This document shows, one piece after another, positions 2,391 to 56,980 of a stretch of 64,000 bases of DNA. The stretch lies in contig OX597818.1 of the NCBI GenBank assembly GCA_951406725.2, positions 6,014,001 to 6,078,000 on the forward strand, given 5' to 3'. Made by a program: the position numbers and the translations under genes. This stretch comes from Octopus vulgaris. Taxonomy: Eukaryota. Each line of letters begins with the position of its first letter. The first letter of the stretch is position 1. The notes below the pieces were generated by a model, which saw nothing but the letters and a program-made list of their open reading frames with translations, searched no databases and had not been told where the DNA came from.

Positions 2391-3950
2391 CATGCATTCT
2401 TACTCCTATGTTTACAAAAATATATATCATACAACACAAAATCATAATTTTAGAACAAAAACTGATACGAAATGATTTTCATAGACATCAACAACCTTTC
2501 AGTTGGACAAATGGAAACTAAAATGTATATAATTGTTGATTTAATGCCTCTTCGATATTGGAAACAAAGAACTTTTAGTAGAAACAAAAAAGTACCGTCA
2601 TTAAATATTCATTCAATATAATTGCCAGACAAAGCGAGAGACATCTTCTAATTGCAAACCAAAACTACGATAAATGAAAGACTAGAGTGAATTATCCAAA
2701 CAGCGATTCTATCAAATCCACTTTACTGGTATTTAGCTATATTTAAATGTTCATTGCTTCTTTCTTAAACAAAATCTCGGATTATTTTACTAAAATCCAT
2801 TTATTCTTAAATTTTCTATAATGATTGCATTCCGAACATTTATTATTCGTTGATGAACCTTAGATTGCTAGTAAAACGATCATCCTACAAATGATGTGTA
2901 ACTAATGACTCAACTACAATATAAATTGAAAATCTTGATTGCAATAATTACAAAGATATAAATTTTAACCTACTTATGATACTCATCAAAATAATTCAAT
3001 TAAAATTAAACCCCGAATTGAAAAAAAAGCTAAAATCTGAAATGTGGTGCCATGTTTGTTTGCGCTTATTGAAAGTAAAACAAAGAAATAGGTACTTAAG
3101 AGAAGAAAGTAAAATACGTTAGAATTCGTTTATTTTTTCAAAAGAGATAATAAATACTACAGTACATAATACTGAAAATACAATGGACGTGCCAGATTGT
3201 CTGCGCTAATATTGTTTGCAGTGCAACTTAAAAGTCGCCACAACCTCCCACACGGAGAATATAACATGACAAAAATAACTGGAAGCATATAGCTTCTTGT
3301 ATAATCGTTGATTCTTCGAAAGACGGTAAAAGGTTTACATCAAAAATAATCAGACATACCAAAAACATCACTAAAAAGTCAAGAGTATATAAGTTTGTAT
3401 GAAGAAAATTGATACATAACTAATTTCTAAGTACAGATATAAGGGAGGAAGAGAAAAATAACAAACATTTGAAAAACAGCCAATAAAATTCGGACTAACG
3501 GGAGCAGGGACAATTTTGACGAATAGTAAACAACCAAAAGACAACACTGCAGTTATGCGCTCTTGTATCGAGCAGATCAATTCAAATGCATGAGCGTCGG
3601 TCATTCATAACACATTTTTTCAGATAGGATTTCAGTGAAAATGCTTTAAGAAAATCAGTATTGAAGACTAAAACATATTTCGATACATAAAAATGATTGG
3701 AATTTAATATGGAATTAAATCATATCACAAAGTAACAGCAGTGTGTAGGGAGATCAACGAGACTAGAATCAGAGAAATATGAAGTTCCTATGGTAATCAG
3801 GGTGTAGTGTTGGTAAAGTGATTAAGGAGAGGTAGCAAGAACGTGGGAAGAAAGTGGGGAACAAGATGAGCGTCCAAGAGAGGAGGGAATTCACTCGGCT
3901 AGGATCAAACTGAGGTAACCACGTGAGCATATAACATATATGATTCACAA

Positions 3951-17169: not shown

Positions 17170-17546
<377 letters not shown>

Positions 17547-17547
17547 T

Positions 17548-17619
<72 letters not shown>

Positions 17620-17628
<9 letters not shown>

Positions 17629-17748
17629 ATGCAATGTCCCGTACATCCCCTAATATTGAGGCCGTCACCTTCTCTGCAGATGAAACGACCTTGGCCTTCT
17701 TTGGAGCGAGTGAAGGTGTTACCATTGCATGAATTGTTTCTTTGTCTA
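17620..17748 (-). repeat. Near-perfect inverted duplicate of 17310-17438
   Basis: About 125 bp reverse complement with one visible mismatch (ccaatg vs ccaagg); the spacer is (TA)n(GA)n(GATA)n. Confidence 0.9.
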
Positions 17749-17952: not shown

Positions 17953-17984
17953 TCATATATATGCAGATCATATCCATTTGATAG

Positions 17985-18375
17985 AATCGCCTGTCAGAGT
18001 AATTGTGCAGTATGTTCGACAAATCCACACGTAAATTGTAAAACCAAGGGCACTGTATACGAGATTAAGTGCCAGGAGGGAGCTTGCGCGACTAACCCAG
18101 AGTCATACATAGGTGGGGCTTCTAGAAGCATCAATGATAGGTTCAAAGAACACCTGGACAACTACATTGAAAGGAAGCCAAACTCCATCTTCCACCAACA
18201 TGCTGTAGACTGCCACAAGGGATCCTTAGGGAAACTTAATTTGAACATCCTATCAACACATCCCACCGATGCAATGTTGAGACAGGTCACAGACGCTGTT
18301 TGTATACAAGAATACAAACCTACTCTCAACCGAAAGTCCGAATGGAGTAACATCCAGATCCCATTCAGAAGGACT
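17985..18375 (+). mobile_element. GIY-YIG endonuclease of a PLE (RQxxEAVxI..LNxKSEW type), 5'-truncated
   Basis: [34 protein letters not shown], a frameshift, then [39 protein letters not shown]. It lies between TA-rich and (CT)n tracts. Confidence 0.7.
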
Positions 18376-18386
18376 ATTCTATAACC

Positions 18387-18454
<68 letters not shown>

Positions 18455-19369
18455 TGTAATCTTTACATACAGGTTGCAATGCGTATGTGCAGTTATATAT
18501 AACGGTATGAGCGTACGTTGTTTGATACGTACAGTTGCACTTAGGCGTTGTATCCATTTACGGTTAGACGATGATGAGAGGAACAAACACACACCCACAC
18601 ACACATATATATATATATATATGTGTGTGCGTCTATACAAACAAATATGTGAATATGTATACAACCTTCAACAAAGTAACAGTCATGTACACAACTTGGA
18701 CGGACACATGCCAGTACACGGACATACGTTCACATACACATACACATGTACACACTCTCACAGACACGTCGGCCCATTCTCCAAGACACTCACATACATA
18801 CGTAGCACATGAGTACAAACATACATACATACCTACGTATGGGCATACACACGTACATACGCACGTACATGTACGCACACACATACATGGGCACATGCAT
18901 ACGTGCGCGTATACATACATACGCATATGTGTACGTATGTACATACACGCATACATACACACATACATACATACATACATACGCACATACATACATACAT
19001 ACGCTCAATAGTAAAACAAAAGTTCTGTGATATAGAGATAAAGATCTGTTAATAGGTTTTAGGGTATAGTTTTGGGAGTAAGCGTCGTAAATCACCTCCA
19101 AGCTTCGGCCAGAGGTAGTTGAAATTTGATAGCATTGTGATGAGTGGTCACTCTACATCCATCCATCGCTATAGGTTTATAGCTTTGTGTTTATAGAGTG
19201 TATGTGCGTGCATATACACACACATACATATATACATACATACATACATACATACATACATACATGCATACACAGGCGTATGTACGTACATGCATACGTA
19301 CATACATACATACACAAAGGTATGCATACATACACACATACATACGTACATATATATGACGAACTAACT

Positions 19370-19584
19370 GTTACTTTCTCTGATGCAGCACGGATTTTTG
19401 TCAGTGAACAGGTCGCGGATTTTAGCGACGAAATTATTTTGACAAATTAAACTTAAATGTTGAAGTGAATCGAACGGCTTTTGTGTGTTTCTTAAATGGC
19501 TTATAAACACCTTCCACGCTGCAATTGTTTTCGTTTCAGCACACGATCTCAGATCAAATTACTTGCTATGCGAGTACATCTCCG

Positions 19585-19588
<4 letters not shown>
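19370..19588 (+). mobile_element. About 200-bp non-coding PLE-terminus-like repeat (copy A) ending in (AT)n
   Basis: Homologous to 20762-20960 (minus) and 20962-21072 (plus); contains a hammerhead-like fold. Confidence 0.7.
19397..19446 (+). ncRNA. Minimal type I hammerhead-like motif with a G3:C8 core
   Basis: Stem I tttgtca/tgacaaa; core GTGAACA plus an extra G; stem II gtcgc/gcgac; GAAA-ttat-TT. Confidence 0.55.
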
Positions 19589-19670
<82 letters not shown>

Positions 19671-20727
19671 GTAGGAGTGATTGCACAAAAAGTACTTAAC
19701 ACTATTTGAAATATTTTTTGACTCTGTTCAGTGCAAGAGCCCGCCTCTTCTAAACAATCCAAAGCCTGAAAGAGACGAGCCTGTGTTAGGGGCCTGTGAA
19801 ACCTGAAATCGTGTGTTTTTATGTATCATTGTATGTATGTATGCATGTATGTACGTACGTATGTATCTATGTATGCGCGCGCGTACGTATGTACATGTAT
19901 TTGTATATTTGTTATTCAGGAGAATATCCTTTAAAGTAAGTCGGTTTTCTGAAATCTTTTAACGAATTACCCTGAGCCAATGGATGAATCTAGGAGTGTA
20001 CACTGTGTCAAGAAGATGCGATAGCCATATAAATACTACTTATATCACCAGTAATATTTTTCTGATGATATCCATATCAAAACTTCAAAAACTTAACTTT
20101 TGTATAAAATTTTACCAATTTGCTCCCTGATGCCAGCGTGTAGAATAGAAGTTGGAAATGATGAACATTTCATTGAGTTACTGAAAGAATTTAATTCGTC
20201 TTAAGCTAACATGATTTAATTTAGACATCACAACAAGTATGATATATTTGTAACATGCCATTTTGCCTTGCAGAAACTGAAGCTATGCTCATGTAGTATC
20301 GAACAAAACAGTCAATTTATCTGTTTACTCTATATCCAAGGTTGCAATTAATGCGCTAATAATATCTCTTTATCTGAAAGTCTACTATATCTAAAATGAT
20401 GTTTAACAAACTTCAAATAGTTATTTTTATTTACTGTAATGGAAATAAATTTCGTAATTAGTGTAAAATATTGCGTAATTGTATACTACTTGGCCCATAA
20501 TGACAGCATGAATGTACCGTCATAATACATCTATTTATTCAGTGTAATTTGTACTTTATTTAAAATAATACGTCTATGTTTTCAGAAGCAGACATGAACG
20601 CTCATCAGAAAAATGTACATTAAGCGTCATATGCGCATATATTGGAGCACATTAGTCAGGAGTCAAGTTTGATTATAAATTATACTTCTTTTTTTAAAGT
20701 GAAATTTCGTATTCTTAATACTTACAT

Positions 20728-20761
<34 letters not shown>

Positions 20762-20765
<4 letters not shown>

Positions 20766-21072
20766 CGGGGATGTACTTGCATAGCAACTGTCTTGATCTG
20801 AGGTCGTGTGCTGAAGCAAGAACAGAAGCAGCGTGGAAGGTGCTTATAAGCTATTTAAAAACACACACGCAAAAACCATTAGATTGAGTTCAACATTTAA
20901 ATTTAATTTGTGTCAAAATATTTACGTCGCTTTGAAACCGCGACCTGTTGACTAACACAAAAGTTTTGCCAGCGAAAAGGTTGCGGTCTCAAAGCGACGA
21001 ATATATTTTGACACAAATTAAATTTAAATGTTGAAATTAATATAACGGTTTTTGTTTGTGTTTTTTTTAATA
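20762..21072. mobile_element. Inverted pair (copies B and C) of the 19370-19588 family
   Basis: 20762-20960 (minus) is joined to 20962-21072 (plus). Shared gcgacg..tattttgacacaaattaaatttaaatgttgaa. Flanked by (TA)n and (TCTA)n. Confidence 0.75.
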
Positions 21073-21093
21073 TATACATATATATAGAATTGC

Positions 21094-21220
<127 letters not shown>

Positions 21221-21233
21221 CCTACCTACCTAC

Positions 21234-21272
<39 letters not shown>

Positions 21273-21296
21273 ATCATCTATCTATCTATATATATA

Positions 21297-22470
21297 TTGG
21301 GAGAGTTTACGAAAAAAACAAAAGATGTATTAGTATAAAGCTGAGGAATACAAAAAGTCTTTTACGCTTCGAGCCTACGCTCGTCTACAGAAAGGGACAC
21401 GGAAAAAAACAAGGAGAGAAAAAAAAGTGTGTAGTGGCTAACGATCTATCACGGCGACTGCCGGACAGAAGGGTCACACAGGAGTGCGAAGAAGTGGGGG
21501 AGATAACAAAGTAAAGATGTCCCCAATAGGAAGGTGCGTGAGTGTATAAGAGAGTATATATGTGCGTGTGAAAGAGGGCTGGTGGTCTGGACGTGTGCAT
21601 GTATGTATGTATAGGTGTGAAAATGTGGGGATGGGAATTGCTTAGTGCTGGTGTGTGGGTCGTGTGTCGTGATGTGATGTGTGATGTTATATGGTGTAGT
21701 GTGGTGTGATGTTGTTGGGAGGTGGGGAGGCGAGAGTGGGGAAAGCACGGGTGGGGTGTGGGTTCGGCTGAGGGCTGGAGTATAGTTGGGGTATGTGGGT
21801 AGGTCGATGATGGGTGCCGGGGATGAGGATGGTGTTGGAGAGGTAAGGGCAAGTGCGAAAGCCTGGGCGGGAGCAGGGGAACAAGCCAGGCTGGGAGTTA
21901 GAGTTGGGGAAGCTGTGGACCAAGAGGTCTCATAGGTTGTGGGCTCATTTGAAGGAGGGAGGGGTTGGTTAGGGAAGATGTGAAGTGGACGGATCGGACT
22001 GGAGATGCCGGAAAGCTCGGAGAATGGTGCGTTGGAGAGGTAAGTTGGTGGGGTGGTAGGTGAAGGGAAAAAAGAGGCGGGAGACTGTAGGACGGGTTCG
22101 GGGAGAAGAAAGCAGATGCACGCTCCACGGAGCGTGCTCTGGCAAGGGCGGTATGGATAGTGGTGAGGAGATATCCACGTAGGATGAAGTGGTGAACCAT
22201 GAGTTGAGACTGAGTCTCAAAGTCATGGTCGTCACTACAGAGCCTGCGTAGACCGAATAATTGGAACTGGAAATCGTGGTGTGTTTGGGGTGGGAGTAGG
22301 AGAAGTTGAGGTATGAGTGTGAGTCTGTGTTTGTAGTGGATGAAGCTGGTCACAGTGGAATGATGAATGCTGACCGAAATGTCCAGAAAGGAAACAAATG
22401 TGTCAGAGATAGTGCAGGAGAAATGGAGGGCAGGATGGAAAGATTTGACAAAATAGAGGAAGGAGTCTAG
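21297..22470 (-). mobile_element. 5'-truncated, internally deleted Neptune-like PLE
   Basis: RT/thumb VSFLDISVSI..IHYK..LRRLCSDDHDF..FILRGY..ALARA, then PFTYHPTNLPLQRTIL and linker LFPCSRPGFRTCPY. No GIY-YIG seen. Both ends lie in TA-rich tracts, with a hammerhead near the 3' end. Confidence 0.8.
21359..21394 (-). ncRNA. Variant or decayed minimal hammerhead
   Basis: Reverse complement cttt CTGTAGA c gagc-gtag-gctc GAAG cg TA aaag. Stems I and II are intact; A6 is U and A15.1 is G. Confidence 0.5.
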
Positions 22471-22501
<31 letters not shown>

Positions 22502-35819: not shown

Positions 35820-37562
35820 AGGGAGGTACAACGACAACAACATGTGTGACAACAACAACAATAACAACACAGACGACAACAACAACGCGAACAACACTAA
35901 CAGCAGCAACAACAACAACAACAACAAAAATGAATGCACGAACACAAGCAATAGATACAAACACAAAAACATAAACAGAGAAAAAAATCGTATACAACAG
36001 CAACAACAACAATTATAGGGGAAATGGACACACAAACACACACACAGATAATCATAGTCACAAGGACACGAAATAAATTGTGTCATGGGAGTCACGATGG
36101 AGAATAAAGTTGAATGCAACAGAATTCTTGGACAGGGAGTCAGTAGACTTGAAACAGAAAACACTTGTAGGAGCAAAAATAACAACCACAACAGAGGGAA
36201 TGACAGGGACCAACACTAATACGAACAACACATACACCAGAAACAGGAACAATGAGAATATCACTAGCGATAATCAGAATGATAGCAATAATGGTAATGG
36301 TAGGAATAACAGTAATAGCAATAATAGTGGTAGTAGTAGTGGTGGTGGTGGTGGTAACAGTAAAAGTAGTAATGATAGTAGTAGTGATAGTTATGGTGGT
36401 AATAGTAATTATAGTAGCAGTGGTGGTAATGATAGTGGTAATGGTGGCAATAGTGGTGATAATAATAGTGGGGTTGATGATGGGAGCAGTAACGACAGAA
36501 ATAGTAATAACGATAATGAAGGTCCATTAACATGTATACCCACCCCTTTGACACTCAATTCTCCAACATATGTGACAAATCTTATAACATGAGCCGGATT
36601 TATCCAACAACATTACCCTTCAACAAAAGGGTCTACATCCCAAGACATACTAATGACGATATGGAAGCACAGTTCACTATAGCTAGGACCAGACTTAGAA
36701 AGATTTTAGAACTATACACTAAGAGACAGAGACAGAATAAGACAGAGGCCCAACAACTCGGGATTAAACCTGCATGTGGCCTACATAAGCTCATTCAGCG
36801 CACGAGGAACAGAGAGGTGGTATGCCTTCCCACAGATAAGTCCGGCAGGTTGTCAATAGACAGCTTACCGAACTACATCCAGGCAATGCAGCCTCATATC
36901 GCCAATACGAAAGTAACAACTTTACAGGCGCATGTGGAGAGAGAAAAGGTCCTCAACGCCCACATGATGATGTGGACAATTGTTCTGGGTCCCCAGAAAC
37001 GCACAGCTAACAATTTCCAAGTCTGGAACAACGATATCCCGGCACTGTATGGACTTCGCAAGGACCATAAAGTAACCACTGACCCTATAGCAGGACCACC
37101 AACAAGACCAGTCTGTAGAGCGAATATCACTAGCAAATACAGAATCTCCTACTTCCTCTCAATGATCATACGCTGTTTGTGACAGCACGGAAGATCTCCT
37201 CAGCAGGATCAATGATTGTAACAACACTTGCGACCTGACAGGATGTATGGTGGGTAGCATGGATATGATATCCCTATACCCATCGATCGACGTGGATTTT
37301 GCGGTTGAGAAGTGCATGGAGATGATCAAGGTGGAGTTCCGCAATGTCAACACAGAGGAACTGACCTCCTACTTAGACTGACATGTGACAATGAATACCT
37401 AGATAAACATAATCTTAGTTTCTACCCCAATAGACGTTTAAGAGGTAGACCACCCACAATTACTTCTATCGCTAGGAAGACCCACATAGAGAGATGGAGC
37501 GGACAGACCAGAGCCATACGGAGACCCGCAAATGTCCATCAGGTAAAGAAAATGATCGCACA
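35820..37562 (+). mobile_element. Partial PLE-like RT element of unassigned clade, with an Asn/Ser/Gly low-complexity N-terminal region
   Basis: GLHKLIQR..VVCLPTDKSG..PALYGLRKDHK..GPPTRPVC..ISYFLSMII, then frameshifted VCDSTEDLL..VGSMDMISLYPSID (RT motif A). It breaks off before the YxDD motif. Confidence 0.75.
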
Positions 37563-38431
37563 TTAATAACTTTTCTGAGCCATAGCTCATATCTTGTGCA
37601 AACAGAAGTTGAACAATATGGAAAAGGTTCAAAACGGTTGCACAGAGTTTTTCCTTCTGTACCAGCCAAAAGTCATAAGCGTGAAATTGAGCTTCGAACA
37701 CAACGATGGCAACAGATAATAGAATATTATGGGACATATTTTGATGAATAAAAAGTTTTCGTATGTAATTTGTTAGAACTATCAAAGTCTGGGATACGGA
37801 TATTTTGACTCAACCTGGTATATTCGGCCACTTAGAATAAAGTACTCAGAATCTGAGAGTAAACACCGTAATAAAAATATAGTAACGGATTATGGATTAA
37901 ATATCTTATGAATACACACATGCTGCACGCACATATCACGAACACACACACACTACACACATACTACACACACTACAGATACACACAGTACACAGACTCA
38001 CATAAGCATACGCAAAGTCAAACACACACATACACACACGTCTAAGCGATTAAGTGTATGTAAACAAAAAAACTCCTTTATAACATTATCATATATCATT
38101 ACTCGTCGACAAGTGGTCTTGGAGAGATTTCATATTAGAGAGAGTTGGTTCGCACGTGCGCAAAACATCTGAGTAGGGTGACGTAGAATTCTGTGCAGAT
38201 AATTAATTTTTGTCTACCACTGCTGAAATATTGGAATGTGTATGCGTGTGTATGCACACACGCGTGCTCGTGCTCATCGAATATTTATCTACGGGTGTGA
38301 CGGTTAGTTTTGGTGAAGTCTACCGTATACGTATACATATATAGATACATGTATATTTACCTAGATATGTATATACATGCATACAACCACATATATATGT
38401 ACACATGAATACAAACACACACACATATATA

Positions 38432-56398: not shown

Positions 56399-56980
56399 GT
56401 TAGGTGGTCAGTCCAGCGTAGCGTGACGTCATCAACGTTTTGACCAATCGTTTCGTTAGGTGGCTTTAGTCAAGCAGAACGGGACGTCATCAACATTCTG
56501 ACCAATCGTGACCTATCGCTGTATTATAACTGCCTCTTGTCTGTATCCTGTTTTGACCAGTCGTTTCGTTAGGTGGCTTAGTCAAGCAGAACGGGACGTC
56601 GTCAAGATTCTGACCAATCACGACTTATAGCTGTATTAGATCTGCCCCTTTTCGTTAGGTGGCTTAGTCAAGCAGAACGGGATGTCATCAACATTCTGAC
56701 CAATCGTGACCTATCTCTGTATTATAACTGCCTCTTGTCTGTATCCTGTTTTGACCAGTCGTTTCGTTAGGTGGCTTAGTCAAGCAGAACGGGACGTCAT
56801 CAAGATTCGGCCCAATCACGACTTATAGCTGCATTAGATCTGCCCCCTGTCTGTTTCTTGTTAGGTGACTAGTCAAGCAGAAAAGGACGTCATCAATATT
56901 CTGACTAATCTCTGCCCCCTGTTTGTATCCTGTCCATTCTAGCAGAACTAGACGTCATCAACGTGTTGACCAATCAGAAT
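56399..56980. repeat. Tandem array of 7 units carrying GACGTCATCAA and CCAATC motifs
   Basis: Unit starts (gttaggtg) at 56399, 56455, 56568, 56654, 56766 and 56860, plus a partial unit at 56941. Confidence 0.9.

Follow-up and report, generated by a model that had tools for sequence, protein, structure and literature searches.

The locus at positions 19,370 to 21,072 of the window (the whole 64,000-nucleotide stretch of Octopus vulgaris contig OX597818.1 analysed here) raises the question of what three short related repeats with a hammerhead-like fold and an unusual G3:C8 core pair represent. Based on alignment, translation and genome-wide comparison, the three copies, A, B and C, are end pieces of an ORF-bearing, endonuclease-containing (EN+) Penelope-like element (PLE) with a C-terminal GIY-YIG endonuclease. 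In our main reading, to which we assign a probability of about 0.72, they are decayed pLTR pieces of this element, and their motif is likely an inherited minimal hammerhead ribozyme (min-HHR) flipped to G3:C8 and predicted to be slow-cutting at best.

Copy A is a pLTR unit on the forward strand (19381..19586) that comprises the 5' boundary, the hammerhead, the ORF start and the tail, with 19381 as its position +1. Its minimal type I hammerhead motif (19397..19446, +), recognized from the sequence, the family state and homologs, contains all the parts drawn in the first-pass annotation: a 7-bp stem I (19397-19403/19440-19446), GTGAACA at 19404-19410 (G3 at 19404, C8 at 19409), an extra G at 19411, a 5-bp stem II (19412-19416/19425-19429) and GAAA at 19430-19433, with a predicted cut at 19439/19440. 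The palindrome of its stem III is broken by a private change at 19434. Copy B (20762..20961, reverse strand) is an older-subfamily pLTR with a tail, and copy C (20962..21066, +) is its tail-less, shorter inverted partner, as the annotation of the two as an inverted pair had implied. Alignment confirms that the three copies are related and lie where they had been placed (B versus A, 81% identity over 198 nt; C versus A, 79% over 103 nt), and their 3' ends visibly run into (TA)n. Copy B was said to keep both letters of the core pair, which it does, yet its core is damaged by G5>C and A13>U, and that of copy C by U4>C, C8>A and A15.1>U. Fold z-scores are -3.0 for A, -3.0 for B and +0.5 for C. Private changes in each of A, B and C depart from the features that define a PLE minimal hammerhead; a relaxed hammerhead descriptor matched 0 of the 3 window copies, and an Rfam scan of 18000-22500 at E<=10 returned microsatellite-driven matches only and no hammerhead. 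The window copies themselves, all three damaged, are likely inert.

Copies B and C form the usual head-to-head pair of PLE stubs. Since the copies nearest to B elsewhere are 87% identical to it, the pair is an older insertion of the family of A, and B retains the ORF frame from the ATG without indels. An assignment of B and C to the 53%-identical sister family described below was rejected: the sister has its own unrelated end, and B and C belong to an older subfamily of A. Two further repeats were observed in the window. Inverted 174-nt arms, 94% complementary, surround (TA)n/(ATAG)n at 17311-17747, directly upstream of the truncated PLE, and are an unrelated fold-back or MITE-like insertion; a tandem array with nested periods of 86, 112 and 198 nt occupies 56425-56910.

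The copies had been described as lacking an ORF and A as a solo copy, and both descriptions are overturned by the surrounding sequence. A 5'-truncated PLE ORF (17960..18384, +; 140 codons plus stop, beginning beside (TA)n) was identified by translation, Pfam and tblastn upstream of copy A. The translation of 17962-18381 runs from a zinc-finger-like CxxC linker into the end of a C-terminal GIY-YIG endonuclease, and the fragment is 92% identical to residues 860-999 of the ORF of locus L076 (tblastn). The Pfam GIY-YIG match has an E value of 0.011 in the window and 4.5e-5 in a longer copy (L032), and the domain exceeds the curated cut-off in longer copies. The ORF is followed by a 3' UTR of about 1 kb (18385..19380, +) that contains (CT)n and (ATAC)n tracts as well as a unique block at 19004-19205. 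This block precedes the A unit, collinear with it, in all 20 loci returned, one of them the window, and the coding segment with the endonuclease lies farther upstream in 14 of 17 rows (two of which are the window). From 17960 to about 19590, the window is collinear at 90% identity with a full-length natural PLE copy (L078), which spans about 4.46 kb in the order unit-ORF-UTR-unit. Copy A closes with 91 nt (19496..19586, +) that hold the opening 30 codons of the PLE ORF: the ATG at window position 19496 starts a frame that, in L122 and L124, continues into that ORF. The optional tail corresponds to about 19530-19586. The search for copies attached to a PLE ORF that the annotation had suggested is therefore positive, with the endonuclease upstream of the unit and the ORF start inside it.

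The longest open frame, of 1025 aa (L076), carries reverse transcriptase (RT) motifs followed by the endonuclease. A YxDD-type motif is present in all 32 aligned proteins, RVT_1 matches 6 of the 32, and the best match in a search of solved structures is an RT (E 2.6e-4). The element protein has 221 homologs at E<=1e-20, the nearest named one being annotated from Octopus vulgaris, whose 2.8-Gb genome is rich in microsatellites. No copy intact from ATG to stop was seen among the long open frames and the near-identical young copies. Two defining features of EN+ PLEs are present, namely RT and C-terminal GIY-YIG in a single ORF and a pLTR partial tandem that overlaps the ORF start. We compared the protein with the Nematis and Neptune clades, which likewise have a C-terminal endonuclease, a CxxC linker, a CCHH motif and (TA)n targeting (PMC8557442); the short CxxC-x7-C spacing, compared by eye, also resembles the Nematis row (PMC8557442 Fig S2). 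In contrast, the RT3-RT4 spacer of these clades is about 60 aa, versus 128-132 aa in 31 of our 32 proteins, and their DKG motif here reads DKS (PMC8557442 Fig S1). The linker is thus Nematis-like, yet the spacer is about 130 rather than about 60 aa, and for this reason we assign no named clade; the comparison uses the aligned rows and motifs of the PMC8557442 figures. Because insertions in the fingers are tied to N-terminal-endonuclease PLEs in PMC8557442, an element combining a C-terminal endonuclease with a spacer of insertion-in-fingers size (L076:3471-6545, -) may belong to an unnamed clade. The same clade is represented elsewhere in the window by a decayed fragment from within an RT (36535-37563, +; 42% identical to the L076 ORF); it resembles the sister family, and no pLTR was seen after it.

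The family is abundant in the genome. A search with copy A gave 58 matches, the best at 97-100% identity (40 candidates scored of 468), many of which carry part of a second copy, inverted, at their 5' end. A 33-nt pattern taken from downstream of the motif matches exactly at 3,778 sites, its reversed control at none. The first 100 of these sites, all on C1, served as an unselected sample. Of the sampled copies, 52 are accompanied by an inverted upstream partner, 23 are long, reaching into the 3' UTR, and the other 25 are solo. The 3' ends fall into two groups, at or before +165 (44 copies) and at or after +195 (56 copies), and (TA)n is found at the 3' end in 72. Among the 25 solos, 6 lie between target duplications of 9-14 bp, and two of these 6 probably represent one duplicated locus. 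This architecture matches the PLE features given in section 6 of PMC8557442 and in PMC3846280; the EN+ hallmark of an inverted 5' partner with an optional one-sided tail is present, the tail being longer than the published 30-40 bp.

Across the family, the motif consists of a 7-bp stem I, GTGAACA, the extra G, a 5-bp stem II, GAAA, the palindrome AATATT and U17, so that the consensus retains GTGAACA/GAAA and stems I and II. An exact 21-mer spanning the 5' core (G3 to C8) has 5,645 matches in the genome against 0 for the reversed control, a lower bound for the family in which inverted partners are counted separately. Versions of the 21-mer without G3 number 176, the first 100 of which include no C3:G8, and G3 is combined with a non-C8 letter in 349 matches. 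Among copies not chosen by their core letters, 201 of 208 have G:C at 3:8. The G3:C8 pair is fixed across the family, in line with the swapped core that the first-pass annotation had proposed for it. The canonical C3:G8 core pair is lacking, yet Watson-Crick pairing at 3:8 is kept and the family state otherwise agrees with a PLE minimal hammerhead: type I, an extra nucleotide at 9/10.1, G10.1:C11.1, GAAA, a palindromic stem III and an NUH site, with an undamaged natural example in locus L077. The extra nucleotide after A9, which had been likened to the CChMVd viroid hammerhead, is standard in PLE minimal hammerheads as well (PMC4209133) and is not peculiar to the viroid.

Variation was surveyed in 249 copies, including 20 loci picked for G8, with a shared variant defined as one found in at least 5% of copies. 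Such variants occur at 4 of 8 sites in loop II, 4 of 12 in the leader, 5 of 49 in the spacer and 9 of 84 in the ORF, versus 0 of 18 sites in the core, stem III and H17 when the picked G8 loci are set aside. Stem II has one shared variant, at a CpG site, and stem I has two, a deletion in a T-run and an A>G change after which a wobble pair remains. Compared with the loops, the core is therefore clearly the more constant, whereas any difference from the plain spacer is not clear. No compensatory changes in stems I and II were found among the 249 copies; identity within the family, at 86-100%, is too shallow to reveal them.

A sister family in the same genome, with about 53-57% protein identity, has a motif in the same place, with C3:G8, C9, the extra G, a 6-bp stem II and U17 or C17. 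Members of this sister (L084/L083) are young, with many open frames of 1310-1312 aa and a long Asn-rich N-terminal insert. Scanning of metagenome contigs yielded 11 related loci. A descriptor that allows any Watson-Crick 3:8 pair, and that was written after motifs had been seen, matched 4 of the 11, all on the sense strand and 90-141 nt after the ORF match, with 0 matches in 100 shuffled sets; L136 and L138 have C3:G8, L137 and L140 have U3:A8. The other 7 loci gave no match with this descriptor, some of them being without the 3' region and two (L142 and L143) being degenerate by eye. Taking motif positions from the descriptor output, the 3:8 pair is Watson-Crick in all six families with a called motif (C:G in three, U:A in two, G:C in one), the second pair of stem II occurs in all four Watson-Crick forms, and UGA, GAA, G10.1:C11.1 and a non-G letter at 17 are constant. 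U17 is also common in the PLE hammerheads of the Hydra clade (File S2 of PMC8557442), and natural U3:A8 hammerheads have been reported (PMC3088659). It is mainly because of the relatives' motifs and the stem II covariation that we consider the octopus motif a true hammerhead homolog, in which pairing rather than identity is kept at 3:8. The hammerhead identity advanced for copy A is thus supported by the family state and by homologs, and the family motif is likely a hammerhead descended from the usual self-cutting motif of PLEs with its core pair flipped, cutting itself being a prediction from sequence. Since position 9 is C in the sister family and in L137, the core does drift within the clade. 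In L136 (4973-5020), the hammerhead has C3:G8 and a swapped U15.1:A16.1 pair within its palindromic stem III.

Where the inserted copies begin bears on which RNA was copied. In the sample of 100, 24 copies have 5' ends upstream of -5, 45 end at -5..+4 around 19381, 17 at +5..+25, 9 at +26..+55, 2 at +56..+62, and 3 beyond. The predicted cut falls about 59 nt after the +1 boundary, and a cut product would begin at +60, where no peak of 5' ends is found among these 100 copies; the genomic ends thus do not cluster at 19439/19440, where the annotation had suggested looking for them in RNA. Because the 5' ends peak at +1 and not at the cut site, the copied RNA likely started at +1 and the template was likely mostly uncut. 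The +1 position (19381) is likely the transcription start. In 12 of 20 short copies whose start is intact, the letter before +1 is G, which suggests a copied cap; this G lies inside the target duplication in three copies, and microhomology with the partner can explain several cases. Directly ahead of +3, at 19362-19383 (consensus in L032), lies a sequence that resembles a 3' splice site, with a branch-point-like ACTAAC, a pyrimidine tract and YAG, and it overlaps an initiator-like TCAG. Introns occur in PLE pLTRs. An origin of the +1 boundary as a splice junction is disfavoured, since only one constant letter precedes the boundary, and the apparent TG before +3 in the best matches to A is an artefact, produced by the private change that the window carries at 19381.

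By analogy with the anole Poseidon element (PMC11167929), a probably capped RNA would start at +1 (19381) and the element protein would nick AT-rich DNA. Reverse transcription would then start within the first codons, at either of two sites, leaving a tail or no tail, and would proceed as far as +1, often folding back to produce the inverted partner. Most of the RNA copied in this way would be uncut; the hammerhead would need a dimer or the help of protein to work and would probably trim tandem or read-through transcripts rather than define insertion ends. We infer a slow ribozyme that depends on dimers or protein and plays a side role, because anole Poseidon shows the same logic (PMC11167929): in PAc, the element of Anolis carolinensis, internal initiation at two sites gives the tail, and the hammerhead is protein-assisted.

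Losses of the core pair may bear on the question of activity. In the first 100 of the 349 non-C8 matches, G8 was found 41 times by hand count, compared with 25 of 100 changes to G for a control cytosine in the same ACA context and 11 of 100 for a control cytosine in stem I (102 matches in all); the C8 and control patterns are not strictly matched, and sequence context can explain part of the difference. The excess of C8>G would fit, as weak evidence, a template pool depleted of cut RNAs. Twenty fetched G8 loci are scattered over old and young subfamilies and one inverted pair is discordant, and an ancestral intermediate subfamily of G3/G8 copies was rejected for this reason. A stronger version of our reading is that G3:C8 forms an active, selected ribozyme, throttled by its dependence on dimers or protein and sparing the capped RNA, in an unnamed clade that uses C:G, U:A and G:C, with C8>G as the footprint of cutting. 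We offer this version tentatively, as a possibility with the odds against it.

The main rival sees in the motif a relic hammerhead that has lost catalysis and persists as a folded signal for protein binding, as a promoter or for template switching, with G3:C8 as tolerated drift in a PLE for which cutting is no longer necessary. The cut site without a peak of 5' ends is what such a relic would give, and position 9 and stem III do vary among relatives. Published work points the same way: the rate drops about 1e5-fold in G8C and is restored by C3G in part only (PMC8495972), Naiads flourish with no canonical hammerheads (PMC8557442), and insertion in vitro is unaffected by hammerhead mutants (PMC11167929). 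Drift alone sits poorly with Watson-Crick pairing at 3:8 in six of six families, with the accompanying retention of UGA, GAA, G10.1:C11.1 and non-G17, and with subfamily changes that avoid the core, and we hold a dead relic to be unlikely.

A separate non-autonomous family, retrozyme- or SINE-like and multiplying through cut, circular RNA, is far less probable and largely refuted. Such a family might be suspected from the 77 of 100 copies that are short with a common 5' boundary, and a preprint derives animal retrozymes from PLE pLTRs (10.64898/2026.07.22.740005). However, the ends are found at +1 and at +150/+206 instead of the cut site, the subfamily letters of the short copies are also those of the long ones, and the ORF start lies inside the unit. 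Nor do the copies form the head-to-tail arrays of retrozymes: among the first 100 matches, neighbours on the same strand are never less than about 890 nt apart, which also answers the annotation's call for tandem copies. Its alternative of a retrozyme-like or solo-pLTR family therefore stands for the pLTR part, whereas the non-coding, retrozyme-like part falls with the attached ORF and the missing arrays. A MITE with a chance hammerhead resemblance, which the annotation had named as its own refutation, has inverted arms and target-site duplications in its favour, but is refuted by arms that are unequal head-to-head partial copies and are absent in 25 of 100, by duplications varying from 9 to 14 bp, by a unit that runs on into the RT-GIY-YIG ORF, and by homologous motifs that covary.

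What is new, on our main reading of decayed pLTR pieces with an inherited hammerhead, is the natural, fixed G3:C8 pair; in its architecture the element is a typical PLE, and its copies in the window are damaged. Fixed beside C3:G8 and U3:A8 relatives, this pair gives evolutionary support to a 3:8 pair known from mutants. Hammerhead searches rely on CUGANGA or U3:A8 and miss G3:C8 families, and for that reason some PLEs may be wrongly scored as lacking hammerheads. If the throttled ribozyme is real, it would let full-length capped RNA survive long enough for copying. This family, whose inserted copies apparently come from uncut RNA, also offers a ready test of the role of PLE hammerheads. In the literature accessible to us, we found no natural G3:C8 hammerhead and engineered uses only (PMC11167929, PMC8495972, PMC3884650); earlier reports may exist.

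Among the closest known systems are the min-HHRs of PLE pLTRs (PMC4209133), which share the pLTR position, type I, the extra nucleotide at 9/10.1 and G10.1:C11.1, as well as a palindromic stem III that requires dimers and an occurrence mostly as lone copies or opposite-strand pairs from truncated PLEs. The core pair differs, since the accessible text of PMC4209133 gives C3:G8, and U3:A8 in Schistosoma, and no G3:C8, whereas the octopus family has G:C; the Schistosoma min-HHRs also have a stem I of 4-5 bp and a stem II of 7-8 bp, versus 7 and 5 bp here. The animal non-LTR retrozymes (10.64898/2026.07.22.740005) are similar as short, high-copy type I hammerhead units related to PLE pLTRs. Unlike them, the octopus units are without tandem arrays, have a non-canonical core, are attached to an ORF, and end at +1 and at the tail. 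Also close is the anole Poseidon PAc (PMC11167929), with RT and C-terminal GIY-YIG, a pLTR overlapping the ORF start, AT-rich targets, a tail between two 3' ends, and no RNA ends seen at the cut site. Its tail is 30-40 nt, compared with about 57 nt here, and its hammerhead lies over the start codon, whereas the octopus cut site is 56 nt before the ATG. The C3G/G8C mutant of PAc has the same core pair as the octopus family and is partly active, cleavage being dispensable for insertion in vitro (PMC11167929); the swap that was engineered in PAc is natural and fixed in the octopus.
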